From a virus (lineage: Duplodnaviria > Caudoviricetes), in IMG/VR virus record IMGVR_UViG_3300028591_000074, positions 189,528 through 253,527 of that record: a DNA stretch of 64,000 bases. One strand, given 5' to 3'. Below, in pieces: positions 16,973 to 61,774 of the stretch (the first letter of the stretch is position 1; each line of letters begins with the position of its first letter). The position numbers and the translations under genes were made by a program. The notes under the pieces are model-generated. The model made no database searches, was not told the origin of the DNA, and saw only the letters and a list, made by a program, of their open reading frames with translations.

Positions 16973-17395
16973 TTAACCATATGTAAATGGTGGAACTTGA
17001 TCACCCATATCACCGTCACCAAGGAAACCACTACCATTACTACGTACAAATCTCTGTGCAGAATCATATAACCAGTCAAGTTTATATCCTTGTGGATATT
17101 GGCTATCCATCTCCTCAAGAAGATCCATAGTCACAAGGCTTGCAAGGTCAATGGCATCTGATTTGTATTTTGCCATAATTGCACAATCCATCGGATTTTT
17201 ACTCTGACCTTTAAACCATCGCCTTATTGCAGCTTTAGGATTGTTTGTATTTGAGGAGTCATATCCACAAACAACTTTGTATTTGAATCCATTATATGGA
17301 TCCCACTCTTCGTAACCTTCGTCTTCCAATTCCTCTAACCGTTCCGGTGACGCATCATACAGTATCTTTGTTTCACTTTTAATATATCTTTTCAT
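16973..17395 (-). CDS. MKRYIKS-leader protein
   Basis: Leader MKRYIKSE. Confidence 0.7.
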   Translation of the reverse strand: MKRYIKSETKILYDASPERLEELEDEGYEEWDPYNGFKYKVVCGYDSSNTNNPKAAIRRWFKGQSKNPMDCAIMAKYKSDAIDLASLVTMDLLEEMDSQYPQGYKLDWLYDSAQRFVRSNGSGFLGDGDMGDQVPPFTYG

Positions 17396-17411
17396 AAACA
17401 ATTACCCCATT

Positions 17412-17687
17412 CTACCAATGAACCATTTTCGGCTTAATGCCATTGTTCATAATTTCTAGTTCATCAACTACATCATGCCAATCATCAACTTCAAGTCGCT
17501 TAACAATGCGTCTTTTGTACACAATTCTCCACTCACCATCGAGTTCATCTGCTTGCGCCCAGTAATATTCTTGATCATCGTATGGCCTTGGCTTAGATAT
17601 TTGATATACGCCAGAGTTCTCATACCATCTAAGGATATAACCCATGTACTCTTCATCAACAGTGGAACTTTTAATATATCTTTTCAT
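17412..17687 (-). CDS. MKRYIKS-leader protein
   Basis: GGGAG RBS, then MKRYIKSS. Confidence 0.7.
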   Translation of the reverse strand: MKRYIKSSTVDEEYMGYILRWYENSGVYQISKPRPYDDQEYYWAQADELDGEWRIVYKRRIVKRLEVDDWHDVVDELEIMNNGIKPKMVHW

Positions 17688-17701
17688 ATTGTATCTCCCT
17701 A

Positions 17702-18046
17702 TCATTCATCTCTAATAATTATGTCATCTTCTGTAATATCATCTTCTGTGATTTCTTCAATACGGAATTCTCCATAATGAAGAAGTACATCACCTTCGTT
17801 ACCACCTTGAACAAACTCATCCGGATAAATAACCCAATCTGGATCATCTATTGGATGAATTGTCTCATATTCATCATCCCATTCATACTTGTTTCCATCA
17901 AGGATTCTTGAATCCCCTATGGATACAAGATAATCAATAAGGATATCTGTCAGAGCACCATAGTCTGTAGTAGGTTCTTCTGTTTCAATAATATAACTAT
18001 CCAACCATGCTGTACCTGTTCCGATATCTACTCGGTAAAATGCCAT
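17702..18046 (-). CDS. Small acidic protein
   Basis: Very D/E-rich, with RBS. Confidence 0.7.
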   Translation of the reverse strand: MAFYRVDIGTGTAWLDSYIIETEEPTTDYGALTDILIDYLVSIGDSRILDGNKYEWDDEYETIHPIDDPDWVIYPDEFVQGGNEGDVLLHYGEFRIEEITEDDITEDDIIIRDE

Positions 18047-18061
18047 AACAATCCTCGCTCT

Positions 18062-18481
18062 CTAAATGTAATCAAAGTATTCATTATACTGATCATTTGT
18101 AATATAACCATTTTCATAGCACCAGTTAAGACCATCCAGTGAAGATTCTGCAAGGATTTCAAATCCATTTACTTCACCATTGTAATATGCTACATAGCCA
18201 TAAGTTCCATCGTAGATGTATTCTACGAAATCAGCACCATCCTTAATTGCAAGTCTTTCTACAGCCTCACTGATTGAAAGCAGTTCTGTGTGGTCATTGA
18301 ACCATGGAGAATCGAAGAAATGTATGAAGTATAGTACACCATCATAATATTCACCAAATCCATTTTCTCTCAAAGCATCTTGCTGTTGTTCAAACAGAAT
18401 CTCCATAGATTCTTCTTGATATGAATCTGAATTAAAATCCAAGGCAGAATTTTTGGTAAGTACTTCAAAATCTGGAACCAT
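18062..18481 (-). CDS. Small acidic protein
   Basis: D/E- and aromatic-rich, with RBS. Confidence 0.7.
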   Translation of the reverse strand: MVPDFEVLTKNSALDFNSDSYQEESMEILFEQQQDALRENGFGEYYDGVLYFIHFFDSPWFNDHTELLSISEAVERLAIKDGADFVEYIYDGTYGYVAYYNGEVNGFEILAESSLDGLNWCYENGYITNDQYNEYFDYI

Positions 18482-18503
18482 TATAATACTCCCTTCATAA
18501 TAA

Positions 18504-18791
18504 CTAACTAAATATATTAAAGGTTTTTCCTGCTACAAAGAAATGTTTCCAACTAATTTCGTTTGTTGTCCGAAGTGCAATATTCACTTCATCGTTATCT
18601 GTCTGATCTTCAATTGCGTGTACTATGTAGGTGCAATCATTCTTAATAAGTCCTACTGTATAAGTGTGACCGGAAACGAACCCACAGGTTGATCTTCCAA
18701 CATAAGTCCGTGTTACATATTCGGATGCACGATAGTTGAAATCAGATTCATTCATATCACCAGATACAATGTTTGATTTAATTCTACCCAT
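18504..18791 (-). CDS. Hypothetical protein
   Basis: Probable start MGRIKS after a GGTGG RBS. Confidence 0.5.
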   Translation of the reverse strand: MGRIKSNIVSGDMNESDFNYRASEYVTRTYVGRSTCGFVSGHTYTVGLIKNDCTYIVHAIEDQTDNDEVNIALRTTNEISWKHFFVAGKTFNIFS

Positions 18792-18792
18792 C

Positions 18793-18990
18793 CTAATGCA
18801 CCACCTTATGAGATTCACGATATTCTTCCAGTCTATGAAGTCTGTAGCATACATAAGCACACAGAATTGCAACTACCTCCTGAAGTACTGCCTGACCGAA
18901 ACTGATGGTACCTACAATACAAGCACCTTCCGTACCGATAGCAAAAATGATTGCCAATACCATAATGATTGCATAAATGTTCTTCTTCAT
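18793..18990 (-). CDS. Small membrane protein
   Basis: Two hydrophobic segments. Confidence 0.6.
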   Translation of the reverse strand: MKKNIYAIIMVLAIIFAIGTEGACIVGTISFGQAVLQEVVAILCAYVCYRLHRLEEYRESHKVVH

Positions 18991-19181
18991 ATTTACTTTA
19001 CCCCCTTAAAATGTTTATTGCAAAGATACTCAACCCGTGTCATACCCTTTACATTAGATTCCAGAATACTTCCATCCGGTAATGTAATCGTGTAGAAGTA
19101 AGACCTACCGATTTTATCATCCACTTCTATTCTTACATCATATTTCTGTTCAAGATCAATCCTATTCATATCTGCACCCCA

Positions 19182-20507: not shown

Positions 20508-20631
20508 ATGCTTACCTCCATCCTATTGGACTATTGATGTGATTTGCTACTTTTCTTAATTATAACCCAAAAAAGATAACCTGTCAACTATAACTTTATA
20601 AGTTTGTTAATAAACTTATCTTAAACATAGG

Positions 20632-20673
20632 ATAAAAATATCCGAGAACTACAGGAACATTGTAATTCTCGGA
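20632..20673 (-). terminator. Rho-independent terminator
   Basis: TCCGAGAA...TTCTCGGA stem plus T-run. Confidence 0.6.
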
Positions 20674-20692
20674 CATAATTTAATACTATATT

Positions 20693-21301: not shown

Positions 21302-21321
21302 ACTATCACCACCTAACTTTA

Positions 21322-21762: not shown

Positions 21763-21809
21763 AGAAAACACCTCATTAACTACAATTATATTGATATACA
21801 AGGTTTCAA

Positions 21810-22514
21810 CTATTGATTAAATGGATGATCTGGTTCATGAAAAGATACAATAGATACACAATCCCCTGTTGACATATCTAAATCTAATTTAATATATATT
21901 TCCATATCAGTATGCATTATACCATCACGAGTAGTCCAATCTGAAACTTTATGAAATACAAGTAGGTCATCACCAAACCAATCATCATCAGCCCCATGCA
22001 TAGATTCAATGTAGTTATCTTCATAAGTAAGAGATTTCAAAACTTCCAGACATTCAGAAATCTTCAATTTACCACCAGAATCTAAAACATAATCACCATT
22101 CCTGTCCTTACGTCGGCATATAATTGTATTGCAAGTTTGCAACTGGCTAAGAAAAAATTTAACATCTGACTCATCTGTCAAAAATGTATAATCAGAATAC
22201 CATCGTTTCAAAATATCCAACTGATCTTTAAGTAAACGCTCTGGGCAAATACGATTTAACCTATGAAGTAATTCTCCATCTGTAATCATAGCAATATCAA
22301 GATCCGACAGCTTCATAAGATTTTCATCAGAAAGGCGCATAAGTGTTTTTTCATTATCCATCATATTAAAGGCTTCATTATCAATATCTTCAGTAGCAGA
22401 TATACTTCTTGGAAACATATTTACATTTTTACATAATTCAATATAAATAATCTGTTTTAATACATCCCTCAAATGAAGCTGTGATTGCATATTAGATTTT
22501 ACATAGATCTTCAT
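21810..22514 (-). CDS. MKIYVKS-leader protein with C-terminal MqsR-like RNase toxin domain
   Basis: LKSLTYED..LLVFHK..IYIKL..VSIVSFHE. Confidence 0.6.
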   Translation of the reverse strand: MKIYVKSNMQSQLHLRDVLKQIIYIELCKNVNMFPRSISATEDIDNEAFNMMDNEKTLMRLSDENLMKLSDLDIAMITDGELLHRLNRICPERLLKDQLDILKRWYSDYTFLTDESDVKFFLSQLQTCNTIICRRKDRNGDYVLDSGGKLKISECLEVLKSLTYEDNYIESMHGADDDWFGDDLLVFHKVSDWTTRDGIMHTDMEIYIKLDLDMSTGDCVSIVSFHEPDHPFNQ

Positions 22515-25864: not shown

Positions 25865-26131
25865 TTAATCCTCTGCGGTTTCTATGTTATCATCATACCG
25901 TTTCATAATTTCTTGGAGAACTTTTGCGTGATTAAGTTCATCAGAAATAATTTCACGAACATGATCCACCGCATCAGTGTCACCTTTAGATTCCAAGAAT
26001 GGAATTAATTTCTGATATCCTTCAATGGCATCCCACTCACCTTCGATATTGATAGCAATTTGCGCAGCTACTGTCTGATCATCATTTACGTCAAAGACTA
26101 AACCATCAGATGCTTTTATATATCGTTTCAT
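25865..26131 (-). CDS. MKRYIKA-leader ferritin-like protein
   Basis: EWDAIEGY..EIISDELNH (ExxH); paralog of 60222-60494. Confidence 0.7.
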   Translation of the reverse strand: MKRYIKASDGLVFDVNDDQTVAAQIAINIEGEWDAIEGYQKLIPFLESKGDTDAVDHVREIISDELNHAKVLQEIMKRYDDNIETAED

Positions 26132-26499: not shown

Positions 26500-26760
26500 T
26501 TATTCAAAACTTATTTCTTTCAAGATATGTTCTTCGTGTGTATCAAAATCATATGAAGTAACTATCAATTTGCTATATAATTCCTGAGACACAACATAAC
26601 CATATTCTGAATCATCTGTAAGCATATCTATATATTCATTTACTTCAGACATATTTCGGAATTGCTGTATTGAGTCTATCTCGCCAGACTTATCATATAG
26701 TGTCACATCATATAGAATTGTCGGCAAATATCCAGAATTTGATTTCACATATCGTTTCAT
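26500..26760 (-). CDS. MKRYVKS-leader protein
   Basis: Leader plus GGAGG RBS. Confidence 0.7.
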   Translation of the reverse strand: MKRYVKSNSGYLPTILYDVTLYDKSGEIDSIQQFRNMSEVNEYIDMLTDDSEYGYVVSQELYSKLIVTSYDFDTHEEHILKEISFE

Positions 26761-27144: not shown

Positions 27145-28080
27145 TTATTCTCTATAACTTACACGCAGCGAACAAACTGGACATCCATCACTTGCTTGGA
27201 AAATCTCGATAAAGTCGGGATCATCCCACTGAATTTCTACATCAGAAAACTTTGTATTTCTATTGAAGTATCCCACTGTATCCTTAAGATAGTTGAACAG
27301 TTCTTCTTCAGTTGTATCATCTGAAATCCAAATCTTCTCTTCTACAACTGTTTGGTCATTTACTTCCCAACCATCTTCTTCGTTACCCCATACATCGAAG
27401 TAATCAATGAGATCAAAATATTTTCCGGGATCATTATGACCTACGCAGTTGATTATTGTTGAAGAATTGACATATTTATCATAACTAAAATCTTTCGGTT
27501 GTTTCTCTTTTGCCATATCTAAATAATGATCTGCTTTTTTAAGATCACCATTCGAAAAGAAGTCTATAATCTTCTCTGCCCAACGAATTGGTACAGGAAA
27601 ATAATCACCGGATCTATCCGTATAAAGAACATACCCATCATCTAAATAACGCATAGTGCAAAAATTATCACTATAGTACAATTCATCACGTTTGTAATCA
27701 TTATGACCTACGCAGTTGATATTAACAGCTGATTCTACAGAAGAACCATTTTCAAATTCATCTGCTTTAAGAACATATTCGTCAATAAGGTCTTGAACAT
27801 TATTTGGACGAATTTGACTATCAATGGCACGTACATCATCAAGAACAAGATCGAAGTAATCTTTCCCATAACGATCATAAACATCCTTAAACTCCGGAAG
27901 TAACTTATCTGCCGGAATACCTGCATTATAAAGTGTATCTGCGATGTCAACAAGTTTTTCATGTTCATCTGTAAGATATGATCTGCTAACATCAGCGTAA
28001 TCACGAAGAATTACCAATTCACTTACAAGATCATAAGGAATTTTGCGTGAGTCACTAGAAGCCTTTACATACTTTCTCAT
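27145..28080 (-). CDS. MRKYVKA-leader multi-module acidic protein
   Basis: Leader; two INCVGHND linkers separate three modules. Confidence 0.7.
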   Translation of the reverse strand: MRKYVKASSDSRKIPYDLVSELVILRDYADVSRSYLTDEHEKLVDIADTLYNAGIPADKLLPEFKDVYDRYGKDYFDLVLDDVRAIDSQIRPNNVQDLIDEYVLKADEFENGSSVESAVNINCVGHNDYKRDELYYSDNFCTMRYLDDGYVLYTDRSGDYFPVPIRWAEKIIDFFSNGDLKKADHYLDMAKEKQPKDFSYDKYVNSSTIINCVGHNDPGKYFDLIDYFDVWGNEEDGWEVNDQTVVEEKIWISDDTTEEELFNYLKDTVGYFNRNTKFSDVEIQWDDPDFIEIFQASDGCPVCSLRVSYRE

Positions 28081-28107: not shown

Positions 28108-29067
28108 TCACGATTTGAAATATAAGAATGGAAACTCATACCACCATACATGGTCAATATTATCAATAAATCTGCTAATCATAGATTTATTATCTAAATG
28201 ATCTACGATCCATTTAGAAACATCATTTACTCGGAGATACAGATCATCAAGATTATGACCATGACCGTGATGGTCAATATCTTCCGGCTTCATATACTTT
28301 TTTACATAATCAAAAACTTCATCTACATGGATAACTGTATCATCCGGTAAATCTGTAATTCTTGCAACATCTGTGGAAGATTTAACTGCATACTTTCCGT
28401 ATTTACGGGCAATAGAATGTTCCATAGTTTCCCCATTTGCGAGTATATCATATTCTTCTTTTGTAAGATAAACGCCCTTTCCGGAATTAGTTACGCCATA
28501 ATAATAAGGGAGACCTTGTGAAATATTGTATTTCTTCTCAAAATCAATGGTTTCACCATCATACATAATAGGGTTTGTTCCATCAATATCGTCATCACGA
28601 TACAACACGTACCCGGAACCGTCATCAATAATCTTTCCACCATATGAAAGATATCTTACACCATTGTCTAACAAATTCTGAAGATCAATAACAATAGTAG
28701 ATGCCTTTACATATTTCTTCATATTACTATCTCTCCTTATATTACTCGAAGCCTTTATATTTTTCGGATTACTTAATATGTATTCCTGAATACTATTCAA
28801 TGATGTATTAGTATCAAATTTCCATGTAGGATTGCCAGTATGAGAATTCCAACCATAAGAATCTGTTTCTGCATCTTGAATAAATTTATTATATTTTCTT
28901 CTCGCAGAAGACTTGTTGGATGTAGTTAATTCATCTACCGGATTACCTACAGAACCATCTGAATTTAACATTCCAATCCAAATATTATATGTTCCATAGT
29001 CATTCACATCTACTTCTATATAATATTTACCGTATTCTGCACTTTGTATAAAAAACCAATTTTGCAT
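28108..29067 (-). CDS. Multi-module protein with internal MKKYVKA start at 28722
   Basis: AAGGAG RBS before the in-frame internal ATG. Confidence 0.65.
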   Translation of the reverse strand: MQNWFFIQSAEYGKYYIEVDVNDYGTYNIWIGMLNSDGSVGNPVDELTTSNKSSARRKYNKFIQDAETDSYGWNSHTGNPTWKFDTNTSLNSIQEYILSNPKNIKASSNIRRDSNMKKYVKASTIVIDLQNLLDNGVRYLSYGGKIIDDGSGYVLYRDDDIDGTNPIMYDGETIDFEKKYNISQGLPYYYGVTNSGKGVYLTKEEYDILANGETMEHSIARKYGKYAVKSSTDVARITDLPDDTVIHVDEVFDYVKKYMKPEDIDHHGHGHNLDDLYLRVNDVSKWIVDHLDNKSMISRFIDNIDHVWWYEFPFLYFKS

Positions 29068-29071: not shown

Positions 29072-29416
29072 TTACCTCATACCATTAGTATTGTAATATT
29101 TATCACCGTGATCATCTAACCAATCAAAAATTTCTGAAAAGAAGTTCCTCGTTTTAGTGCTAGATTCAGCTTCCGTCCAATATTCTGCTGAATGAGCATC
29201 CATCCATTCATTTGTCCACGGTTCTTCGTCATCAAAATCCCTCGCATATGTCGGATCATCATCTACAATTACAAGATCATGATATGGATATATACTAGCC
29301 ATAAAAAATTTTCCATTTTTCAATGCCCCAATGAATGTATCACCATTATTCTCAATCCATTTAATATCATCTTTAGTATAAGTAGTCTGGTTTGAACATC
29401 TTATATATCTTTTCAT
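29072..29416 (-). CDS. MKRYIRC-leader protein
   Basis: Leader plus RBS. Confidence 0.7.
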   Translation of the reverse strand: MKRYIRCSNQTTYTKDDIKWIENNGDTFIGALKNGKFFMASIYPYHDLVIVDDDPTYARDFDDEEPWTNEWMDAHSAEYWTEAESSTKTRNFFSEIFDWLDDHGDKYYNTNGMR

Positions 29417-29649: not shown

Positions 29650-29874
29650 CTACTTTCTAAAATCATCTGGAGTAAATACAACGAAATTCCAGAAAAATTC
29701 AATGTAACCATCATCTAAAAGTTCGTCCATCTCCTCAAATGTTGCAAAAACAACTACTCTGCGTTTATCTTTGAGCATAACATCCCAAAATGTTCTGCCA
29801 TCATCAAAATAAGGATATTCACTGTTACTTAAAGCAGCTTTGACTGGTTTTAATAGTTTCTTCACTTTAGACAC
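29650..29874 (-). CDS. Hypothetical protein (leader-like KPVKAA)
   Basis: First gene after AACCTT and AATCGTTATA motifs. Confidence 0.5.
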   Translation of the reverse strand: MSKVKKLLKPVKAALSNSEYPYFDDGRTFWDVMLKDKRRVVVFATFEEMDELLDDGYIEFFWNFVVFTPDDFRK

Positions 29875-29945
29875 CTCTATATACTATAACGATTCACAAG
29901 CCTATATTACTATTAAAGGTTAAACTAAAAATAGAACTCAGCAGT

Positions 29946-31253: not shown

Positions 31254-31799
31254 CTAAGATATGATTTTGTCAATCTTTTCAAATGCAAAAATATAAGATT
31301 CGAACTTTTCTCCATTAACAAGAATTTGATCTCGCATAGGTTTGGTTTCTAATCCACCAAGCCTATCAGATAGTTTCTGTTCTTGTTTTTTCTTCTCCTT
31401 CTCAGAATGATCAGTTCTATGTGCCGTATGCGTAGCAATTCTAAGCGTGAAATCAAAATCAATGATAACTAATCCATCTTTAGATTTAGCAAGCATTCCG
31501 AGATAATCAGAATAATAATCAGATTCATTCTTATAGTACACTTCCATCTTATAAAAGCGTTCAGCTAATTCAACTATAGAATCTATAAAATTATGATACC
31601 GTTCGATTTCTTCTTCGGTGTATTCAGACTTAGGTTCACCCGAAATAACAGAACCATCCGGAACATTTACATCTTTATAAGTTGTTGCGGCAATATTAGT
31701 ATCGGTATCCCCATCAAATTCAATATTAACAATAACATTTACATGTGTTGTTGTAGGTTCAGCATCTGTCGTTTCTTCAGTTTTAATATATCGTTTCAT
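31254..31799 (-). CDS. MKRYIKT-leader protein
   Basis: Leader; LRIATH motif. Confidence 0.65.
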   Translation of the reverse strand: MKRYIKTEETTDAEPTTTHVNVIVNIEFDGDTDTNIAATTYKDVNVPDGSVISGEPKSEYTEEEIERYHNFIDSIVELAERFYKMEVYYKNESDYYSDYLGMLAKSKDGLVIIDFDFTLRIATHTAHRTDHSEKEKKKQEQKLSDRLGGLETKPMRDQILVNGEKFESYIFAFEKIDKIIS

Positions 31800-47746: not shown

Positions 47747-47950
47747 TTAATCATTATAAAATGCTTTTCTTGCTTCAATTCTAAGACCAGTGTCCATTTC
47801 CTTTATAATACTGTAATCTTGAAGATTGTTTACATATTGTGTAGCCTCTCGAACAGTCATACCATAATAATCTCTGACTATTCGAATTGCCTGCTGTTTT
47901 GTATAAGAACCACTACCATTCGTAAACGAAGATTTTATATATCTCTTCAT
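47747..47950 (-). CDS. MKRYIKS-leader protein
   Basis: Leader. Confidence 0.65.
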   Translation of the reverse strand: MKRYIKSSFTNGSGSYTKQQAIRIVRDYYGMTVREATQYVNNLQDYSIIKEMDTGLRIEARKAFYND

Positions 47951-48316: not shown

Positions 48317-48850
48317 CTATTTCTCAAACTTAAACCCGGAAATAGAATACTCACCGGTTTTATAATGTTTTACAATACATCCCTTTGCTTTCAGATCCTT
48401 CCAAGAAATATAAGCATATGTTTTGTATCCAGATTTAACTCCATAATTCTTATAGGATTGTCCTAAGAGATACCAAGAACAACTTGCTACATCAGAACCC
48501 CAATGGTCACTACCACGTATAACACCATCAGATGAATACCAATATTCACTGGATTTCTTAACTTTTCCACCATGACGGAAATCGTGGTAATTCATGCTTA
48601 CATAGTCTGGCTCTCGTCTTGGTCTTGATTTCCTTACTTCCCAAAATCCTATAGAATTTAAGAAGTAATTATCCTTTGTAGCAACATCTTCTGTAAATAT
48701 GGATGCAAGTTCGTACATATCTTCCGGGGAGGAATCTAATCCTGTTCCTGTACCATATGTATCTCTTAGATATGCCAAATACTCCTGCGAGTATTCACCA
48801 GTCTCGTCATACATATTTGGATCTAAGTTAGATCGTATATACAATTTCAT
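48317..48850 (-). CDS. MKLYIRS-leader protein with RxSDHWG..VASCxW domain
   Basis: Leader and motif. Confidence 0.65.
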   Translation of the reverse strand: MKLYIRSNLDPNMYDETGEYSQEYLAYLRDTYGTGTGLDSSPEDMYELASIFTEDVATKDNYFLNSIGFWEVRKSRPRREPDYVSMNYHDFRHGGKVKKSSEYWYSSDGVIRGSDHWGSDVASCSWYLLGQSYKNYGVKSGYKTYAYISWKDLKAKGCIVKHYKTGEYSISGFKFEK

Positions 48851-48861: not shown

Positions 48862-49239
48862 TTACTCAATTCCACGCTCTTCAAGAACTTCATCAATAGC
48901 CTGTGCCAAAATATAACAACGAATTGTTACATCGAAATATTCCCAATCCTCAGACATAAAATGATTTACTACATCTTCGGCTTCTGTGCCAAATTCACTA
49001 ACGGCTTCTTTGAGAATATCCATACCATCATCACTATCAAACAAATACTTCTTTGCTTCTTCACGATTAAATGTATAAGAACCGGAACCGTTACCTGTCA
49101 CACTATCGTCAGTCCACAGATCATCATTGAGTCTCTGACGAATTTCATCAGCATCAACATCATCGCCATACGCGCTGATATAATCATCAAGTACATCCTC
49201 AATATCGCTCTTTACCGCTTCAAGATAGTTGTAACTCAT
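48862..49239 (-). CDS. Acidic phage protein
   Basis: DDSVTGNGSGSY..DVTIRCY. Confidence 0.7.
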   Translation of the reverse strand: MSYNYLEAVKSDIEDVLDDYISAYGDDVDADEIRQRLNDDLWTDDSVTGNGSGSYTFNREEAKKYLFDSDDGMDILKEAVSEFGTEAEDVVNHFMSEDWEYFDVTIRCYILAQAIDEVLEERGIE

Positions 49240-49523
49240 TATTCATAATCCTCACTTTCATCATATTCATCTTCGTAATCCTCGTCATCTTCTTCATTAC
49301 GTTCATCCCACTCACGGAAATCATTCATACGGAAAAGAAATGCAAGACATGCTGCAAGTTCTTCACTTGACATACAACCAACAATCTGGCTATTCAACTC
49401 TTCTTCACCAAAATATTCACATGCAAAGTCATATGCTTCATGTGCTTCCCAATCATTTACTACCCAACCATAAGATTCTGCTGCCTTAATCGGTCTACGA
49501 TTTATACTATTTCTATTAACCAT
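49239..49523 (-). CDS. Acidic protein (leader-like RRPIKAA)
   Basis: Acidic tail shared with the neighbouring gene. Confidence 0.65.
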   Translation of the reverse strand: MVNRNSINRRPIKAAESYGWVVNDWEAHEAYDFACEYFGEEELNSQIVGCMSSEELAACLAFLFRMNDFREWDERNEEDDEDYEDEYDESEDYE

Positions 49524-50278: not shown

Positions 50279-50424
50279 TATATGTATACCTCACTTTCAA
50301 GACATCATTATCATATATAAATAATAAAGGTTATTATTTTCTAGTTCTAACCACAAATTTGACTATGCAACTGGATTTTACATGCCATTTAAAACTATTG
50401 TTTAAACTCTAACAATAGTAAAGG

Positions 50425-53509: not shown

Positions 53510-54574
53510 TCAAAATATTACATCAGCATCATAATCAATTTTTGTATTTTTCAAATACTTTTCCGTGTATAATACTCCCCAATTTGCTTTCATCAGGAAT
53601 TCATCAATTCTACTATAATCTGGTTTTGGTGGAAGTACAGAATGTTCTTTTGCATGTTCCAACCTGGATTCATAATCGTGAACCATATCAAAGAATTCCT
53701 TTGTAGGCTTCCCATCTTCACCAAGATACTTACCGTTTCGAATATCCATGAGCAAATCATGTTCTTTCTCCCGGTAGGTGATGATCTTACCATCTAACAG
53801 AAGGTCTTCGCACATCATGTACAAACGAAGTAGATGCATAGAATGTTTTGCAATCTTACCATGTGCAAGTGCATGATCATTCCGCTTACTGTTCTTGTTA
53901 TATTCTCGGATAACAGTATTTATAGAATTAAGTACAGATGCAAGGTCTTCTGCCGGATAATCCTGAACACTTAAATCAAGAACAATTTTACCATCTTTCA
54001 GTTTTACCTCTACATCATGAATATTGTGCTGAGATTCTAATGTATCATGCATACCATTCAAAGTTTTTACAATATGTGCATTATATTCTTCATCAGACAT
54101 AGCAACAAGAGATTTCTGCTGCAACCGGTACATCTGCTGATTTGCATATCCCATGAAAGATCCGACACATTTATTAGATAAAAACATATTGTAGTTGTTC
54201 AAAAGATCTACACCCAAGGAATTCTTATACAAGTAGTGTTCTGGCTTCAACCCTAGCATCTCTATTACATTCGGATTACAGTTTGTAAGCAGACTAACCA
54301 CTTTCTTCAGTGAGTAAATAGTTGTATCTGTAGGTTCATTACAAACTTGTTCAAATCCTCTACCAAGTAAGATGTCAGATGAAGAATTCAATGCTACTCC
54401 TCGTATATCAACATCAGAAGTTTCAATGTTTGTTCCGTAGGCATAAGAACCTCCAAGTCCAACAAGGATAGGATCATGCAATTCCGGAGTTGTATCTAGA
54501 AATTCATACCGAGATTCATCAACAGAAATGTTTAGTTTCTTCAGAGAACTCATTACAGATTCTTTAAGTTTCAT
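53510..54574 (-). CDS. Pol-beta superfamily nucleotidyltransferase
   Basis: GGSYAYGT..SDVDIRG; NPNVIE; K..MHLLRL; IRNG. Confidence 0.85.
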   Translation of the reverse strand: MKLKESVMSSLKKLNISVDESRYEFLDTTPELHDPILVGLGGSYAYGTNIETSDVDIRGVALNSSSDILLGRGFEQVCNEPTDTTIYSLKKVVSLLTNCNPNVIEMLGLKPEHYLYKNSLGVDLLNNYNMFLSNKCVGSFMGYANQQMYRLQQKSLVAMSDEEYNAHIVKTLNGMHDTLESQHNIHDVEVKLKDGKIVLDLSVQDYPAEDLASVLNSINTVIREYNKNSKRNDHALAHGKIAKHSMHLLRLYMMCEDLLLDGKIITYREKEHDLLMDIRNGKYLGEDGKPTKEFFDMVHDYESRLEHAKEHSVLPPKPDYSRIDEFLMKANWGVLYTEKYLKNTKIDYDADVIF

Positions 54575-56789
54575 CTTTCACCCCCGTAGTCCTCATGTAC
54601 TTGTAGAACTCATTTCTCAAGTAAATGATATTTCTCGGTATCAAGTCTCTCTGCTCTCTTGTTCCTGCATCGTTGTACAACTTCTGACAGAAGGAGTAGA
54701 ACATATTAGCTTCAGGAGTAGTGAGCGATCCAGTTCTTCTGAAGTATCCAGATCTAAGAACTTCATGTGCTATACCTCGCATAAATTTCCAGAAGTTGTA
54801 GTAATGAAGCTTTATCTTCACCATCTTGCCCTCTATATCTTCTATAACGAAACCTTCAATGATTCTACCGTTGTATTCGTATCCCTCTGTAGTCACTTCG
54901 TTATACCAGTCAACAAATTCACTCCAACTTGCAAGTTCAAATGCTTTTTCTTTGGTCTTAACATTGAGTTCAGATCCGATGTTCAAAAGATTTTCATAAG
55001 AAGTCTGCTCAAATTCCATCTGGTTCTTCACAATGCTGAGTAAGAATAAATCAGACTCCGGATACTCAATAACATGAGGATCATTCTCCATATCTACGCA
55101 TTCAAAGACGAATGAAACATCCTTGTCCTTACAGATTTCTTTCATTCTATCTCTAGAAGATTCAGACATCTTAGAGAACAGCATCTGTTTGAATAGTTCA
55201 GCATAGCTTCCTGTGGGATTAGACTTTGTAGTTATGAAAAGGTCATCATTATCTGCATCGTAGGATACAATTCCAAGGAACCCGTTTTCCTTGACATAAC
55301 AAGTTACAGGGAACTTCAACGAATATTTCAACATATCGAACTTTGTTTCTGGTCGTTCATTGATATTGAAGAACTTATCATATGCCCTAGCAGCAACTTT
55401 CATACGTGACGTGTCAATATAAAGACCTCTTGCCTTTACTGTCTGCTCATCCCAAACCTTGTCATAGAAAGCATCTCGTGTGAAATTGAATGATGAAATG
55501 TTGCCGAACTGCTTCTCATTCACATGTTTGTTTGCTCGAAGAGCCAATACCACATCAGAGATGCTACTTGTATTCATCACAGTCTGTGTAGCAATTTCTT
55601 CAGGTTCTTTGAAAACATCATTCTTGATTTCAATTTCTTTGAAACCATCATGTGTCAGCTCAAGTATCCGGAGATGCCCACCGAACTCAACCGAACCTTC
55701 AAGATCATAAACTCGATCTCTAAGCTTCATAGGAGAAGCCTTTGTGTTTCTGTGTCCGAAAATCTGGTACGTAGAATCGGAAGTAGTTCTCATCCACGAA
55801 TCAGCTACAATTTCATAATCATTGTAGTTGCCTACACCCTTGATCATCTGCTCTGTTGACATGAAGCTCAAGTTATCCGGAAGTGCTGCAATACCTGCAT
55901 GGGATACAAATATATCCTTATCGTCAAACTTGTACCATGCACACTGCCCCAACTTGCGATACAACTGCCGAATTGCTTTTACATCAACATGTGCTTCTTC
56001 AAGCTGCTTCCTGGTAACAAGTTCAAATTCTTTAGACTTTCCTACTCCGCCATGTGCATAGATCCAAAGCCATCTTTCGTGGTTACCTTCAAGAACAAGT
56101 ACATTTTTCTTGTTAATGATCTGTGTGAACCAATTCACAACTTCAACATTCTCAATTCCTCGATCAATCAAATCGCCTACGAAGATGTACATTGTGTTGT
56201 CATCAAGTCCATCTTTAAAATACTCCATGAGTGCAGTATAACAACCATGAATATCTCCGACGTGCACAACCTTATCATAACCGGAGAAATCAACCTGACG
56301 CATCCAAATAGTGCTAAGATCCTCCGGCTTGATTACCTTTACACCGGAAGGAATCTTCTGAGTAGCGAATCTTGAATACATCTTGTCAATGGCAGATTCT
56401 GGAACCTGCTTGAGTATAGGTCTGGATGCGTTTCTTCGTTTGCATTCATCAATAGGAAGATCCGTCATGTCAATGCAGAAGATGCGATAGCGATATGTAT
56501 CGCACATCTCCTTATAACGATTTATTTCAGATGTCTTAGAATTTGTTGCATCAATGACGGTGAACTCACCATTACGCATGCGAATTTCAAGAAGTTTAAA
56601 AAGCATATTCCAAACATCCTTTTCATTCTTCTGACTAATCTCTACTCTACCATCTGCTGTCTGCTGTGCAGACTGGCATTGGAGTCGAATTTCATCGGCT
56701 GAAAGTGCGTAAGGACGCAATCCATTCTGATCAATGAATGTTGACTTTCCACAACCAGGTGCTCCTCTAAATAACAAAAGTATTCTCAT
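54564..56789 (-). CDS. Polynucleotide kinase-metallophosphatase-RNA ligase
   Basis: GAPGCGKS P-loop, DATN; GDIHG/GDLIDRG/GNHE; KARG..KFFN..KENG..EGFV..KIK. Confidence 0.9.
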   Translation of the reverse strand: MRILLLFRGAPGCGKSTFIDQNGLRPYALSADEIRLQCQSAQQTADGRVEISQKNEKDVWNMLFKLLEIRMRNGEFTVIDATNSKTSEINRYKEMCDTYRYRIFCIDMTDLPIDECKRRNASRPILKQVPESAIDKMYSRFATQKIPSGVKVIKPEDLSTIWMRQVDFSGYDKVVHVGDIHGCYTALMEYFKDGLDDNTMYIFVGDLIDRGIENVEVVNWFTQIINKKNVLVLEGNHERWLWIYAHGGVGKSKEFELVTRKQLEEAHVDVKAIRQLYRKLGQCAWYKFDDKDIFVSHAGIAALPDNLSFMSTEQMIKGVGNYNDYEIVADSWMRTTSDSTYQIFGHRNTKASPMKLRDRVYDLEGSVEFGGHLRILELTHDGFKEIEIKNDVFKEPEEIATQTVMNTSSISDVVLALRANKHVNEKQFGNISSFNFTRDAFYDKVWDEQTVKARGLYIDTSRMKVAARAYDKFFNINERPETKFDMLKYSLKFPVTCYVKENGFLGIVSYDADNDDLFITTKSNPTGSYAELFKQMLFSKMSESSRDRMKEICKDKDVSFVFECVDMENDPHVIEYPESDLFLLSIVKNQMEFEQTSYENLLNIGSELNVKTKEKAFELASWSEFVDWYNEVTTEGYEYNGRIIEGFVIEDIEGKMVKIKLHYYNFWKFMRGIAHEVLRSGYFRRTGSLTTPEANMFYSFCQKLYNDAGTREQRDLIPRNIIYLRNEFYKYMRTTGVKDET

Positions 56790-56957
56790 ACTACTGACCT
56801 CCATCTGAAATATACTGTCTACCACTACGCATATGTTATCATATTATAAGATAATTGTCAACATATATTTGATAAGTTTCATAATAGATTTATCATAATA
56901 AAAATAATGGTCATATAAATAACACTTATACTTATATATGCTATAACGATTTGATAA

Positions 56958-56991
56958 ATTAAAAATCCGGCACAGGCGATTCTGTGCCGGA
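56958..56991 (-). terminator. Rho-independent terminator
   Basis: TCCGGCACAG..CTGTGCCGGA plus T-run. Confidence 0.65.
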
Positions 56992-57074
56992 CATATTAAG
57001 TTAGTATATCTCAAATACCACAATGGTATTGGATATCAAATTATACTTAACGCAAATTTCACATAAGATCAATT

Positions 57075-57392
57075 CTAATCTTCATAATCCTCATTATATT
57101 CGGGACTATTGCGCCAATCAACTATTTCATCAATATCCTCCCTATTGTACGAACGGATATATTTCTTTTTGATCTTTATTTCTTCAACGCTTCTACAGTC
57201 ATGCTCTTTTGCATACTTCAATGCTTCATACAAAGCATCTTCATAGTCAGAACCATCAAATAGTGCCACATAATAACCTGCTTTATCTACCACAATATAA
57301 TTTATTGTATCATAATCATCCATATGGAATGAGTAATCTGTAACTAAATCTTCTTCAAGATCAGACAAATTGGCTTTTACATACTTCTTCAT
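57075..57392 (-). CDS. MKKYVKA-leader protein
   Basis: AAAGGAG RBS plus leader. Confidence 0.7.
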   Translation of the reverse strand: MKKYVKANLSDLEEDLVTDYSFHMDDYDTINYIVVDKAGYYVALFDGSDYEDALYEALKYAKEHDCRSVEEIKIKKKYIRSYNREDIDEIVDWRNSPEYNEDYED

Positions 57393-57439
57393 TTCGTATC
57401 TTTCTCCTTTCATCTGCACAACATACCAATCATTAAATC

Positions 57440-57704
57440 TTATATTAGTTCATCTGGTAGTTCCTCTACTTCAAATTCTACACTATCAAACATAGTTTTA
57501 CGACCAAGGTCATCCATTGTATCAAGGAAAAGATCATATGCAGAAATAGTTGCATCTTTTGGCGTATATGCGACTACACCATATTCATAATCAACAACCA
57601 TTCTGACACGAAATTTTTTTTTCACCAGCATCACCATACTTAGCACTGTTCTGCTCATAAAGTCTATCAACCTGATCGTAATTTAAATTTGAAAAATATT
57701 GCAT
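57440..57704 (-). pseudogene. Small protein frameshifted at an A9 tract (57614-57622)
   Basis: AAGGAG + MQYFSN..GE[A9]FRVRMVV; A8 restores the frame. Confidence 0.55.
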
Positions 57705-57786
57705 AATTTTATTCTCCTTTATATTTTATATTTTTCTAATAATTATATTCCATAATAATATTCAGGAAGTATCATCAATACTCATC

Positions 57787-57927
57787 TCATTTCTTCTTCT
57801 CTTTCCATCCACTTAGACGGATTGCTGCACCTTGTTTCTGTGCTTTCTTCTTAGCGTCTTTACCATAGTATACTTTCCCGGTCTTACCCCATTGATATCC
57901 ACCGGATTTTGTTTTGTGTACTGGCAT
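57787..57927 (-). CDS. Small basic phage protein
   Basis: Manual: MPVHKTKSGGYQWGKTGKVY..KAQKQGAAI; GAGG RBS. Confidence 0.7.
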   Translation of the reverse strand: MPVHKTKSGGYQWGKTGKVYYGKDAKKKAQKQGAAIRLSGWKEKKK

Positions 57928-58013
57928 AATTGTTTACCTCATATGCATTATTATCAATCCAACAAATATTTGGGTACGCAGAAAATCTATCGGCTCAAAA
58001 TTAATCTCTGTGT

Positions 58014-58544
58014 TCATAGAAGCATCATATTATATTTTTTATCAATGTAATCATCTACATATCTATTTGATTCAGTATTACCAAGTGAAAATTCAACAAG
58101 TTCACCATCTAAATTTATTACACATTTCTTTGTACGTCTATCGTACGACTCTAATGGCATATCTCTGTAATATAAGTTGTCCTCACCATCTAAATTTCCG
58201 TGATCAGTATAAATAAGTGCGTAATCCCCCTCAATATCAGCTACTGCATATGGTGTATCAATGGTCCTTAATTCGTCTATCGTAACTATTGTTTGTGTGG
58301 AATACCAATCGAACCACCCATCCATAGGATTTTCACCCCGTGAAATATCATCTAAATATTCATCCATAATCTTCTGATCGAAAAAGCTATCAAAATTAGA
58401 TGTCAAATATCTTCTAACCAATTCCATTTCATCTGGTGTAATCTTTCTGCCAAAACTTTCTCTCCAAGTTTCAGACACACATCTAATCATAGCATCAATA
58501 AAATATTGTTCTTGACTACTTGCACATTTAATATACTTTTTCAT
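58014..58544 (-). CDS. MKKYIKC-leader protein
   Basis: Leader. Confidence 0.7.
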   Translation of the reverse strand: MKKYIKCASSQEQYFIDAMIRCVSETWRESFGRKITPDEMELVRRYLTSNFDSFFDQKIMDEYLDDISRGENPMDGWFDWYSTQTIVTIDELRTIDTPYAVADIEGDYALIYTDHGNLDGEDNLYYRDMPLESYDRRTKKCVINLDGELVEFSLGNTESNRYVDDYIDKKYNMMLL

Positions 58545-58699
58545 AATATAAAATTCTCCTTTATAAAATATTATAGATTATAACATATCAATAACATATA
58601 ATAATTTATGACATCAATATCTTTATTGGATAGCATACCATTCTAAATAAATAGGATAACCAATCTTTTCATAAAATTTTGATAAAATAACAAACAGAT

Positions 58700-58909
58700 T
58701 CAATTACGTTTAAGTACACCCCAGTCATCAATTTCTTCAATAGGTGTAAGTTCCATCTTTTTAAAACTATGTATTTCTCTATGATCTTGCAATTTATTTA
58801 ATTGCCTGTAAGTAGCTAAAGTATATACGGGGTTTCCCGGATAATCTATGTAAACTTTATACAGACGCTCAGTATCCAAATCAGAATCAGCTTTTACATA
58901 TTTCTTCAT
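58700..58909 (-). CDS. MKKYVKA-leader protein
   Basis: Leader. Confidence 0.65.
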   Translation of the reverse strand: MKKYVKADSDLDTERLYKVYIDYPGNPVYTLATYRQLNKLQDHREIHSFKKMELTPIEEIDDWGVLKRN

Positions 58910-58969
58910 ATCTCTTCTACTCCATTACTTTTAAATACAATTTTACTACCAGTCTCATATGGTTCTATG

Positions 58970-59290
58970 CTAACTATATATATCAAAAATATAATCACCG
59001 CATTCCGGGCATCTGCCATCCTCTTCAAGCGGGGCATCACATCTTGGACAGAATGTCTGACAATCAGAATACTTTGGAAGTATGCCTGATCTATCATTAG
59101 TAATCTGTGCGTTTACAGATGTCACATAATAATGTGGATACATCTCTCTGGCTCTATACTTTGCATTGTTGCAGGCTTTTGCTTCAGTATCAGCAGTTGT
59201 TTCTATGTATGTTTCCAAGAAATCTTGATGTTCATAATCTGCGAGTCGTACAGTACATAAATAAGTTGCTGATCTTATGTATCTCTTCAT
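58970..59290 (-). CDS. MKRYIRS-leader protein with Zn ribbon
   Basis: Leader; CPRC..CPEC. Confidence 0.7.
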   Translation of the reverse strand: MKRYIRSATYLCTVRLADYEHQDFLETYIETTADTEAKACNNAKYRAREMYPHYYVTSVNAQITNDRSGILPKYSDCQTFCPRCDAPLEEDGRCPECGDYIFDIYS

Positions 59291-59299
59291 ATATCTGTT

Positions 59300-59488
59300 T
59301 TACCTCATGCTATAAAGATCATCAATGAAATCTTGTGCTTCTTCTATCGAATCAAAATATACTTGCTTTCCATTATGAATTATGTAATAGCAATCCGGTC
59401 TATGCGTAAAATTACATCGTATTTCATATCCACGATATTAGATGTATGCTGGATTGTCATTATCAGTAACCTTTATATATCTCTTCAT
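59300..59488 (-). pseudogene. MKRYIKV-leader gene with internal TAA
   Basis: MKRYIKVTDNDNPAYI*YRGYEI..FDSIEEAQDFID. Confidence 0.6.
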
Positions 59489-59496
59489 AAAACACC

Positions 59497-59832
59497 TCAT
59501 TCAAAGTTTATCCTAAATTTTACGTAGAACACATCGTCTAAGCAATCATTTTCTGCATCTACCATATAGATGTCTTTCAGATCCGGAATATACTTCACAC
59601 AATCGTCTACAAAATCTGATAAATCTTGGAAGTAATCTTCCCAATCACCTCGGCCATTTAATCCACCACATATTAAAAATTCAACGAAATCTTCTCCGTA
59701 CTGCTCTATATCTGCAAGAGATAGATTAGTATCAGAATAATCTCTGATATTTAGAATTTCAACAATAATGTCGAAGAATTCATCTCTATCAAATAATTTA
59801 TTTTCTTCAGAACAACGAATATACTTCTTCAT
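59497..59832 (-). CDS. MKKYIRC-leader protein
   Basis: Leader; acidic body. Confidence 0.7.
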   Translation of the reverse strand: MKKYIRCSEENKLFDRDEFFDIIVEILNIRDYSDTNLSLADIEQYGEDFVEFLICGGLNGRGDWEDYFQDLSDFVDDCVKYIPDLKDIYMVDAENDCLDDVFYVKFRINFE

Positions 59833-59897
59833 AAATTACTACCATCCGCTATATAATTTTACGAAGGTCAGAATCAAACTGATTCAATAAATAAGTC

Positions 59898-60191
59898 TTA
59901 ATATCGAATATAATAATTGATAACATCAATATCTTTCTTTGGTAACATGTCATTTTCTAAAAGATAAGATAACCATTCTTTTTCAGCAAAAGTAAGACGG
60001 ACAATCCCAGTGAAATTATCAGATTTATTGTAAGCTCTTAATGCTTTCTGACAAATTCTCTGTCCGGGTCCATATTCATATTGTTCGGTGATAACTATAA
60101 GTCTATTCAGACGATCCATTCGTTTTGCAATTTCATCTCTACTCAAATTACTTGTAGTTGTATGACCATCTGAAAAGGTGTATTTATACAT
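59898..60191 (-). CDS. Hypothetical protein
   Basis: ORF within the cluster. Confidence 0.55.
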   Translation of the reverse strand: MYKYTFSDGHTTTSNLSRDEIAKRMDRLNRLIVITEQYEYGPGQRICQKALRAYNKSDNFTGIVRLTFAEKEWLSYLLENDMLPKKDIDVINYYIRY

Positions 60192-60221
60192 AACCGTAAG
60201 CTCCCAATATAATATCAACTA

Positions 60222-60494
60222 TTAAGATTCATTCGTTGGAATATCCCCATCATACTTCCGCATGATATCACGCAAAATCTCTGCATGATTTAATTCATCT
60301 GAAATAATTTCCCGTATATGGTCAATAGATTCTTGATCATCATGCATTTCAAAGAATGGTATCAATTTCTGATATCCCTCTACGGCATCCCACTCACCTT
60401 TCAAATTCAAAGCAATCTGAGATGCCGTAGTAAACTTATTCTCATTATCCAATACTATTGCAGTATCGGCAGATGATTTAATATATCGTTTCAT
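60222..60494 (-). CDS. MKRYIKS-leader ferritin-like protein
   Basis: Paralog of 25865-26131. Confidence 0.7.
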   Translation of the reverse strand: MKRYIKSSADTAIVLDNENKFTTASQIALNLKGEWDAVEGYQKLIPFFEMHDDQESIDHIREIISDELNHAEILRDIMRKYDGDIPTNES

Positions 60495-60674
60495 AAGATA
60501 TAGTCCTTATCGTATTCTATTCATAATCATATGCATAGTCAATTCCATACTCACCATCTGGTCCAATATTAGCATACGGAACTACTTCTATAGTTGCAGA
60601 ATAGAGTACAGAATCTTTATATACATCATCTGGGATGTTTGCATAATGTGAATGCGGATGGGAATCTACTGCTA

Positions 60675-61211
60675 CTACACCACATAATAATCAGTTCCAT
60701 CGACTATACTCTGCACATGTTCATCAAGACTTGTTAAAATCTTTTCCTTCATCTGCCAATGATCCTTATCCCGTGGAATTGCTACAATTACATCATATTG
60801 CATTCCTGCACCGTTTCCGATTACCTGTTCATCCTCAAGATAAATTGGGGCATAATTGACTCTTGCGTCAATATAGATTTCATCACCAATCTCATCAAAT
60901 GAAAATGCAAAACGATCATCAAGTTCTGTTGCACTTTCAACTGTTTCGTCAACTACAACTTCGTCATAGTCATCAAGCATCATATCTCTTGTATGCTGTC
61001 CGGCACGAAACCATCTTCCACGATTGGATTTAGATCCTGTGTAATTCTTTACTTCTCCTTCCGGAGTATCCCACCTCATGTACTGCCTAGCAACACTATG
61101 ACCATCTTTATACTTCTTTGTTTCGATGAACTTATTTTCATTTCTACGATTCTGATAGGTTCTAACATCAGAAGTTGCGCTTGTGACATTACCTTTGATA
61201 AATCTCTTCAT
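60675..61211 (-). CDS. MKRFIKG-leader protein (possibly frameshifted near its 3' end)
   Basis: GGAGG RBS plus leader; coding-like continuation to about 60517 in another frame. Confidence 0.6.
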   Translation of the reverse strand: MKRFIKGNVTSATSDVRTYQNRRNENKFIETKKYKDGHSVARQYMRWDTPEGEVKNYTGSKSNRGRWFRAGQHTRDMMLDDYDEVVVDETVESATELDDRFAFSFDEIGDEIYIDARVNYAPIYLEDEQVIGNGAGMQYDVIVAIPRDKDHWQMKEKILTSLDEHVQSIVDGTDYYVV

Positions 61212-61234
61212 TTGTATTCCTCCATCTAACAATA

Positions 61235-61774
61235 TTAAAACCTAAGATTACTTCGGTTTACAATAATAACACTATGATTACCATATTTAGGAAAGTCCGG
61301 GTCAATGTAGTAAAAATCATCGAATTCAACTAAAGCATATTCAAGGAGTTCTTTTTCAGTTTCTATTCCAAATTCTGTCACATATTTTTCCAACGGATAT
61401 TCTAAAATAACTGCTGTATCCAAAACAATGAGTTCACCGGATTCATCATTTATTACAGGCATCCCTTCAAATCTGTCAAAATCAAATGATTCTCCAGAAT
61501 TTTCAGCGGCTTCTCCATCATCAAGCCAATCCAAGAAATCATCATCAGTAATATTTGAAACAGCATCCTTATTTTTCGATATGATAGCAACATCCATGCC
61601 AGTCATATCTGAATGAAATAGTCTCCCATATACACCGCCACCATAAATAGGTACACCATTTTCATCATCGTATCCAGAAAGTATATCATCAATATATTGC
61701 TGCAGATACTTCTTTTCGTATACAAATGGTTTACCATTGTTTGTGACACTACTTGATCTAATATAAAGTTTCAT
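61235..61774 (-). CDS. MKLYIRS-leader acidic protein
   Basis: GAGGTG RBS plus leader; first gene after an AACCTT motif. Confidence 0.7.
   Translation of the reverse strand: MKLYIRSSSVTNNGKPFVYEKKYLQQYIDDILSGYDDENGVPIYGGGVYGRLFHSDMTGMDVAIISKNKDAVSNITDDDFLDWLDDGEAAENSGESFDFDRFEGMPVINDESGELIVLDTAVILEYPLEKYVTEFGIETEKELLEYALVEFDDFYYIDPDFPKYGNHSVIIVNRSNLRF

Follow-up and report, generated by a model that had tools for sequence, protein, structure and literature searches.

Among known phage systems, the capsid-targeting sequence (CTS) of bacteriophage T4 comes closest to the one considered here. It reads MKTYQEFIAE, and in the CTS of internal protein (IP) III residues 4 and 7 serve targeting whilst residues 8 and 10 serve processing (PMC8442874). 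The CTS, found on IPI, IPII, IPIII and Alt, can load foreign proteins (Mullaney and Black 1996, as reviewed in PMC9026906, PMC5694885), and Alt loses only a 7-residue propeptide (PMC9026906). A second relevant arrangement is that of the herpesvirus protease-scaffold, which in pseudorabies virus (PrV) carries a release (R) site, YLQA-T, after the protease domain and a maturation (M) site, VQA-S, near the C-terminus (PMC4498786). The present work concerns a window of 64,000 nucleotides, the last 64 kb of a 253,527-bp gut (rumen-type) phage genome (G+C 35.8%; positions 189,528 to 253,527 of IMG/VR record IMGVR_UViG_3300028591_000074), for which an initial annotation had proposed that a leader common to the N-termini of some 20 unrelated proteins is a capsid-targeting signal for injected cargo. 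This leader, M-K-[RK]-Y-[IV]-[KR]-[SA]-[SA], here called the tag, on balance probably directs proteins to the capsid and marks them for processing much as the T4 CTS does, and would be served by a gp21-fold protease-scaffold with an assemblin-like cleavage code. Searching the literature for the tag strings turned up no paper with the motif.

All 20 leader starts listed in the initial annotation proved to be minus-strand ATG codons, each with a Shine-Dalgarno-like G-rich stretch upstream, and the protein begins with M-[KR]-x-[YF]-[IV]-[KR] at every one of them. A six-frame scan of the window with this pattern, on DNA where the minus strand holds nearly all the genes, returned exactly the same 20 sites and none on the plus strand. 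In the whole genome a slightly looser pattern gave 38 matches, of which 34 are gene starts, all on the minus strand, and the other four are open reading frames (ORFs) of at most 28 codons. The 34 starts lie in four clusters, at 1.3-14.7 kb, 67 kb, 144-145 kb and 207-251 kb of the genome, and they compare with 0.19 expected from the position-specific N-terminal background (positions 2-6) of the other ~400 genes, so that the leader stands up to a genome-wide enrichment test. It is absent from tail, methylase and other recognisable genes, in line with the earlier claim for metabolic and tail genes.

The tag is not confined to this genome. An exact 18-mer tag probe matched 55 stretches in IMG/VR, 20 of which hold three to eleven tagged genes; pooled with the genomes of four relatives, these gave 164 distinct tagged proteins of 40-829 residues, in 122 BLAST families. 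Their logo is M at position 1, K at 2, R, then K, then L or I at 3, Y at 4 (98%), I more than V at 5, K more than R at 6, S, then A, then T or C at 7, and S, then A, then N or T at 8, and there is no conservation beyond residue 8. Synonymous codon usage within the tag is the same as in the gene bodies, which agrees with the earlier remark that the codons vary; since synonymous choice in the tag is free, selection acts at the level of the peptide. Upstream, the sole feature common to the tagged genes is an ordinary ribosome-binding site (RBS). Two other kinds of N-terminal signal were considered. A Sec or lipoprotein signal peptide (lipobox) was ruled out, the tag being eight basic residues with polar or acidic sequence directly after and no hydrophobic core of ~10 or more residues. 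A site of the Firmicute Prp/L27 type, F-F/A-S (the slash marking the cut), was likewise rejected.

The phage has a head module of the T4 type: its capsid protein is gp23-like, and its protease, which has the gp21 fold, is fused to a coiled-coil scaffold. The capsid gene (genome 167311-168849) encodes a protein that matches Pfam Gp23 at 1.6e-16, and identity to cultured phages by tblastn is at most 27%; megablast of the tail genes against cultured phages gave no match. Upstream of the capsid gene lies a gene for a protein of 507 residues (genome 168897-170420; L011:12897-14420:-) that matches the PHROG family ‘head maturation protease’ (phrog_207), with a weak match to Peptidase_S77 as well. 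AlphaFold confidently models a domain at residues 12-160 and, after it, a helix of 210 residues; Foldseek placed T4 gp21 first (5JBL; template modelling (TM) score 0.65, root mean square deviation 2.5 A, probability 1.0) and the herpesvirus assemblins next. A sequence search of the PDB gave nothing meaningful, so that only the fold search found a match. H66 and S121 are invariant. The fusion adds a coiled-coil tail of ~340 residues to the prohead protease, a layout like that of the herpesvirus protease-scaffold on a fold closest to T4 gp21.

A candidate cleavage code emerges, independently of the tag, from comparison of the head proteins. Fifty relatives with 58-81% capsid identity were fetched, from which 41 capsid propeptides and 45 proteases were aligned. 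The propeptides, poorly conserved elsewhere, contain three column pairs in which I or V makes up at least 98% of position i, and A, S or G at least 95% of i+2, corresponding to residues 44/46, 50/52 and 91/93 of this phage; the last pair directly precedes an invariant ATNT(T/S)NI. The proteases have four conserved sites of the same sort: an [IV]-x-[AS] site near the N-terminus, [IV]-A-A-S-(T/S)-(D/N) directly after the catalytic domain, R-I-x-[AS]-x-Q within the coiled coil, and V-T-A-S-T-(S)-V some 45 residues before the C-terminus. The first, second and fourth fall in segments of the model with a predicted local distance difference test (pLDDT) score below 50. These conserved islands in the capsid propeptide and the protease linkers suggest cleavage sites and, with them, a herpes-assemblin-like code, in which an aliphatic residue, any residue and a small residue would be followed by another small residue.

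The tag ends in just such a sequence. Positions 5-7, [IV]-[KR]-[SAC], form the same type of triplet as those of the capsid propeptide and protease islands, and because the tag thus ends in the apparent cutting site of the phage’s own head protease, a T4-style load-and-trim tag is its most likely function. The fit can be examined in depth in one cargo family, the ferritin-like proteins discussed below, for which 246 metagenomic homologs were found. Among 113 aligned orthologs, position 5 is I or V in 100%, position 7 A or S in 97% and position 8 S or A in 96%, whilst Y4 is kept in 81%, with W, L, M, V or F in the rest; the few extended tags of the family end in VKAS or ITAS directly before the body.

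The code also appears away from the N-terminus. In the family of the protein encoded at 16973-17395 (140 residues, MKRYIKSE; the family bodies end in GDQVPPFTYG), all 12 listed homologs are tagged, and four homologs have an extra N-terminal module that is joined to the body by D-V-[KMT]-[SG]-S. The 319-codon open frame at 28108-29067, on the minus strand like all the tagged genes of the window, has three modules and an inner tag start at 28722 (MKKYVKAS-T) with its own RBS; its modules are joined by NIKAS-S, YVKAS-T and AVKSS-T. It has three [IV]K[AS][ST] sites, and every other protein of the genome has at most one. Retention of the motif at internal junctions takes weight from explanations that require a free N-terminus, such as initiation context or an N-degron. 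More generally, in all five genomes analysed, including that of relative G003, which is without the MKRYIK consensus, basic N-terminal peptides ending in [IV]-x-[ASC] outnumber each of five classes of control motif by 2.9- to 14-fold.

Two of the relatives have large sets of N-termini of other types. At 136-148 kb, G001 (L081-L090) carries about 25 tandem genes for proteins of 100-125 residues that start MKIY[ACS][ST] and have a common (F/Y)(I/V)GKD(V/L)W motif; these are a true paralog array with a shortened tag, showing the same code in another register. In G003 (L072-L080, e.g. 75544-78497), fourteen proteins of 100-150 residues start MSIYVKT, with the look of ubiquitin-like MQIFVKT, and only two of the 91 pairs are related by BLAST; they may represent a second tag type or a very diverged family. 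Of the further contigs considered for co-occurrence of tag and protease, three are fragments, and G007, with 16-20 tags, breaks where the capsid and protease genes should lie. CheckV rates this contig (L154-L162, 175.6 kb) as 100% complete, yet it is without capsid and protease genes; the rating is misleading, since the contig ends exactly where those genes lie in the genome of the window.

Taken together, the analysis suggests the following sequence of events. Tagged proteins would be made alongside the structural proteins and brought by the tag into the assembling prohead core, which would be built by the fusion of gp21-fold protease and coiled-coil scaffold. After closure of the shell, the protease would cut after the small residue 7, or possibly 8, using the same [IV]-x-[A/S/G] code by which it would trim the capsid propeptide and itself. 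Once trimmed, the cargo would be retained inside the capsid, perhaps to be delivered into the host together with the DNA. Cutting at the triplets and of the tag itself, residence of the tagged proteins in proheads and virions, and their injection are all inferred.

The likeness to T4 extends to several features. In both systems, proteins that are otherwise unrelated carry a short N-terminal peptide, and the phage has a capsid protein of the gp23 type alongside a protease of the gp21 fold. Both peptides start M-K-x-Y and have an aliphatic residue at P3, a position that is presumed for the tag, although eight residues are too few to show homology; like the CTS, the tag would have a targeting part followed by a protease-site part; the length of the tag is near that of the 7-residue Alt propeptide; and the cargo turns over fast in both. 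However, the presumed P1 residue here is A, S or C and in T4 is Glu, and the tag has 7-8 residues where that of T4 has 10-19. The scale also differs: T4 has three IPs and Alt, whereas here one genome holds ~34 tagged genes and the clade more than 120 families of bodies. In addition, the cargo is acidic and that of T4 basic, protease and scaffold form one fused protein, and the system is known from sequence alone.

In the cleavage code and the layout of the protease, the resemblance is instead to the herpesvirus assemblin-scaffold. The two share the protease fold (by Foldseek), a protease domain followed by scaffold, one site, here a putative one, right after the catalytic domain and another near the C-terminus, and the likely code, in which a small residue comes after aliphatic-x-Ala/Ser. 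Y-[IV]-K-[AS]-S, the core of the tag, looks much like an R site, which in human cytomegalovirus is YVKA-S. To our knowledge, the R-site motif does not serve as a cargo tag in herpesviruses. Unlike the herpesvirus enzymes, the protease here is that of a bacteriophage, its closest structure is T4 gp21, and its sites are read from conservation only. The jumbo phages phiKZ and SPN3US, with their ejection and inner-body proteins, offer a further parallel to the system proposed here, since they have many head-internal proteins with N-terminal propeptides, containing multiple sites, that are cut by a gp21-related protease; in contrast to the tag, these propeptides mostly exceed 100 residues, have no shared consensus and are cut after Glu (PMC5694885, PMC10052503).

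Two strand-biased, intergenic promoter-like motifs, A and B, bear on regulation. A scan for the sigma-70 consensus showed no enrichment. Motif B (AACCTT[TA]WATA...) has 30 sites on the coding strand and one on the other with a position weight matrix score above 10, and it is found ahead of the operons for tail sheath, head-tail adaptor, tail/baseplate and protease and ahead of every tag cluster, where eight of the ten heading sites score 20.9-25.3. Motif A (AAATCGTTATAAT) precedes genes for a helicase, C5 methylase, dCas12f, homing endonuclease and integrase-like proteins. Both motifs are conserved in relatives G001, G002 and G005, and G003 is without any B sites. All the B sites of the window given here are on the minus strand. 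The one at 61801-61822 (AACCTTTAATATCTATATAA; score 24.6) lies 48 nucleotides before the tag start at 61774, and that at 50311-50332 (score 23.5) heads the operon of the tagged genes starting at 48850 and 47950. At 29900-29921 (score 25.1), a B site followed 29 nucleotides later by a motif A (AATCGTTATAG) heads the 29416-26131 tag cluster, and the site at 18504-18525 (score 20.9) heads an operon containing the tagged genes starting at 17687 and 17395. For comparison, the B site at 16897-16918 heads an untagged tail/baseplate operon with genes for proteins of 273, 1231 and 1181 residues.

The bodies behind the tag are mostly unrelated, as the initial annotation had it, with a qualification. When the first nine residues were removed, the 33 longer proteins of this genome fell into 26 BLAST families, and most bodies have no detectable similarity or common fold past the tag. 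Some paralog pairs do exist, and most of them reflect the duplication of a segment that is now present at both genome 10.7-12.5 kb and window 57-60.5 kb. The duplicated segments (window 54567-60494 and genome 7867-12466) include twin ORFs of 741 residues that start MRILLLFRGA, and four colinear tagged genes with 46-89% identity. The bodies were also correctly described as mostly acidic, their isoelectric point (pI) being 4.1-5.5 for most.

The cargo turns over rapidly. Few cargos have homologs in relatives with 58-72% capsid identity, and even a contig 99.4% identical to window 59473-64000 has different cassettes at window 57415-57905. This contig is also without a decayed tagged gene at 59300-59488 (MKRYIKVTDNDNPAYI, with an in-frame TAA after 16 codons and then 45 codons), and the deletion junction lies inside the first 16 nucleotides of the tag coding sequence, which indicates that the tag DNA is also a point of recombination, perhaps incidentally. 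A protein of another contig, L105:2377-3417:+, starts MKRYIKSYTYVRSAVS, in which a complete tag stands before what is left of another tag, the latter being intact in its homologs; this double start suggests tag-mediated recombination of cassettes.

The identity of the cargo is clearest for two paralogs, those at 25865-26131 (88 residues, MKRYIKAS) and 60222-60494 (90 residues, MKRYIKSS), which had been noted as a ferritin-like pair and for which profile and structure searches now agree. The family profile matches Myxococcus xanthus EncC (7S8T, E = 1e-3). An AlphaFold2 model has two helices with pLDDT 90-98, the second ending ~11 residues before the C-terminus, and its best full-length structural matches are EncC 7S8T (TM 0.62-0.67, 30-32% identity) and the encapsulated ferritin (EncFtn) of Rhodospirillum rubrum. 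E32, E65 and H68 are invariant, E65 and H68 forming an ExxH motif. On their modelled two-helix fold and these Glu/ExxH ligands, the pair are classed as encapsulated-ferritin-like proteins. Residues 1-9 of the one cargo modelled have pLDDT below 50, which places the tag outside the fold. The pair are without a C-terminal targeting peptide, and no encapsulin gene was seen nearby.

EncFtn is a classic cargo of HK97-fold shells (PMC11202242), and the comparison with encapsulin systems (EncC, 7S8T; R. rubrum EncFtn, 5DA5; PMC11202242) is instructive. In these, as proposed here, a short disordered terminal peptide brings diverse cargo into an HK97-fold shell, and two of the tagged proteins share the EncFtn-like two-helix form with conserved E32, E65 and H68. 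The encapsulin peptide, however, is usually C-terminal, binds the shell and is not cleaved, whereas the tag is N-terminal and probably cleaved, and the shell here is that of a DNA-filled virion. A broader proposal, which we put forward tentatively, is that an uncultured clade of gut or rumen jumbo phages has made the T4 CTS principle into a general cargo system, in which a protease-scaffold of herpesvirus-like specificity loads dozens of fast-evolving proteins and polyproteins, encapsulated-ferritin homologs amongst them, and the virion serves as an encapsulin-like delivery compartment.

For the other cargos, searches were less informative. The 19 intact window cargos gave nothing above the cut-off in Pfam, and 117 family representatives matched only unnamed families in PHROGs. 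In Pfam the same representatives gave few domains: LRR_5 leucine-rich repeats (LRR), LRV, DUF5662, one phosphoribosyltransferase and one ART-PolyVal. The last, on the tagged cargo of one relative, recalls T4 Alt. ART-PolyVal is a domain of proteins proposed to enter with phage DNA (PMC5512222). A zinc ribbon claimed earlier is present as CPxC...CPxC at the C-terminus of the protein at 58970-59290 (106 residues, MKRYIRSA), and Pfam did not support an MqsR-like RNase. The T4-type head module, the tag end matching the proposed code, the code at module junctions and motif B lend the analogy with the T4 CTS indirect support. For the suggested anti-defence or host-takeover cargo, the few domains amongst the 117 representatives give almost no support, the best-understood cargo, the encapsulated-ferritin-like pair, pointing elsewhere.

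Several observations weigh against a load-and-trim tag. The lineage is uncultured, with a capsid at most 27% identical to that of any cultured phage. The [IV]-x-[AS] code is low in information, and internal [IV][KR][ASC][STA] sites, with 25 observed proteome-wide against 27 expected, are neither enriched nor depleted. P2 is K or R in the tag and T, M or N in the capsid sites, and the fourteen-member MSIYVKT set of G003 agrees less closely with the code, its residue 7 being T, E or D in many members. T4 internal proteins are basic; the cargo here, acidic as well as small and hypervariable and located in plastic genome regions, has the usual look of early genes. Three tag clusters carry motif A next to motif B, in tandem; when genes are crudely assigned to their nearest site, 12 of 28 tagged ones come after a motif A; and motif B is taken as ‘late’ only from the genes downstream of it. 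Given the tandems and the A-site counts, co-expression of tagged and structural genes is plausible and not exclusive.

How far these points favour other explanations depends on the explanation. The tag might serve for addressing or docking to a different partner or destination, for example a chaperone, a modification enzyme or another compartment of the phage, and its likeness to the protease code would then be coincidental. This we regard as unlikely. It would accommodate a code so short and common that its internal sites are not depleted, and a tyrosine at position 4 and basic residues that are specific to the tag and missing from the capsid and protease sites. Coincidence does not readily explain, however, why the best-conserved tag positions are exactly those that the protease code needs, or why tag-like sites also occur at internal module junctions, and no conserved enzyme gene was seen beside the tag clusters, which are spread over four genome regions. 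A different possibility grants loading and cutting and denies injection: the cargo could act in the head as core, spacer or DNA-protecting protein, or be expelled at maturation. Cargo resembling encapsulated ferritin does point to chemistry inside the shell (PMC11202242), the acidic bodies are unlike the DNA-binding internal proteins of T4, and in T4, too, core proteins are cut and for the most part lost from the head (PMC9026906). The extreme turnover, whereby genomes 99.4% identical differ by whole cassettes and few cargos are common to relatives at 58-72% capsid identity, is nevertheless more typical of conflict genes than of structural helpers, and the ART-PolyVal domain on the cargo of one relative also argues for delivery; we consider a fate without injection rather improbable.

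Two further explanations are less likely still. Were the conserved feature one of nucleic acid, either an enhancer of translation initiation or a recombination handle for exchange of cassettes, and the peptide itself without function, then the deletion junction within the first 16 nucleotides of the tag and the tag prepended to a second-tag remnant would be accounted for, and A-rich second codons are common in AT-rich genomes. Against this, synonymous codons vary as in the bodies whilst the amino acids stay constant, the upstream regions have only an ordinary Shine-Dalgarno in common, positions 5 and 7 stay I/V and A/S over 113 orthologs, and tag-like peptides are kept at internal junctions too; we consider this very unlikely. 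Least credible is that the tagged proteins are a single diverged paralog family with the tag as a remnant of ancestry. Several pairs are indeed true paralogs, and a segmental duplication accounts for part of the array, but 122 BLAST families amongst 164 proteins of 40-829 residues, folds and domains as different as a two-helix ferritin-like protein, zinc ribbon, LRR and ART, and the sharp drop in conservation after residue 8 are hard to reconcile with common descent.

If the tag is indeed a signal for loading and trimming, then protein loading by a short cleavable tag would not be peculiar to T4, and the strategy could be scaled up to tens of cargos in one genome and hundreds of families in a clade. 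The protease would represent a new specificity class of phage prohead proteases, mirroring herpesvirus assemblin, and an encapsulin cargo, EncFtn, would be linked to the phage head. The tag would allow proteins delivered by virions of metagenomic phages to be predicted by a simple rule from sequence, would open up a large pool of unknown proteins acting at the very start of infection, and could be used as a minimal, ready-made tag for packaging foreign proteins in engineered capsids.

The remaining tagged genes of the window are as follows. Next to the 16973-17395 gene lies 17412-17687 (91 residues, MKRYIKSS), whose body is in G003 the C-terminal part of a larger protein. The gene at 21810-22514 (234 residues, MKIYVKSN) has no Pfam match, and an atlas look-up of the protein (21813-22514) gave no match either. 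In the cluster from 29416 to 26131 there are, besides the ferritin-like gene and the three-module frame already described, 26500-26760 (86 residues, MKRYVKSN), 27145-28080 (311 residues, MRKYVKAS), which has three modules with a repeated INCVGHND linker, and 29072-29416 (114 residues, MKRYIRCS). The first gene after the promoter-like pair at 29921/29892 is 29650-29865, with a looser tag (71 residues, MKKLLKPVKA-A). Further along are 31254-31799 (181 residues, MKRYIKTE), 47747-47950 (67 residues, MKRYIKSS), the sole basic body with a pI of 8.2, and 48317-48850 (177 residues, MKLYIRSN), which has a paralog at genome position 1339. The last group contains 57075-57392 (105 residues, MKKYVKAN), 58014-58544 (176 residues, MKKYIKCA), 58700-58909 (69 residues, MKKYVKAD), 59497-59832 (111 residues, MKKYIRCS), 60675-61211 (178 residues, MKRFIKGN) and 61235-61774 (179 residues, MKLYIRSS).

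Some other N-termini of the genome have a similar look. At genome 107836-108853, 74351-75268 and 109394-109600, downstream of motif B sites, are proteins that start MKITKRTITA-S, MKISHRTITA-S, MKKLIYA-A and MKKFIYA-A; these starts resemble capsid propeptides or looser tags and end in the same code. In the window, the 94-residue protein at 49239-49523 starts MVNRNSINRRPIKAAES, in which RRPIKA-A resembles RRPITA-G of the capsid propeptide. Finally, a 415-residue ORF of the HNH-endonuclease type (window 5381-6628; phrog_119, 2.6e-65) lies inside the tail/baseplate gene block.

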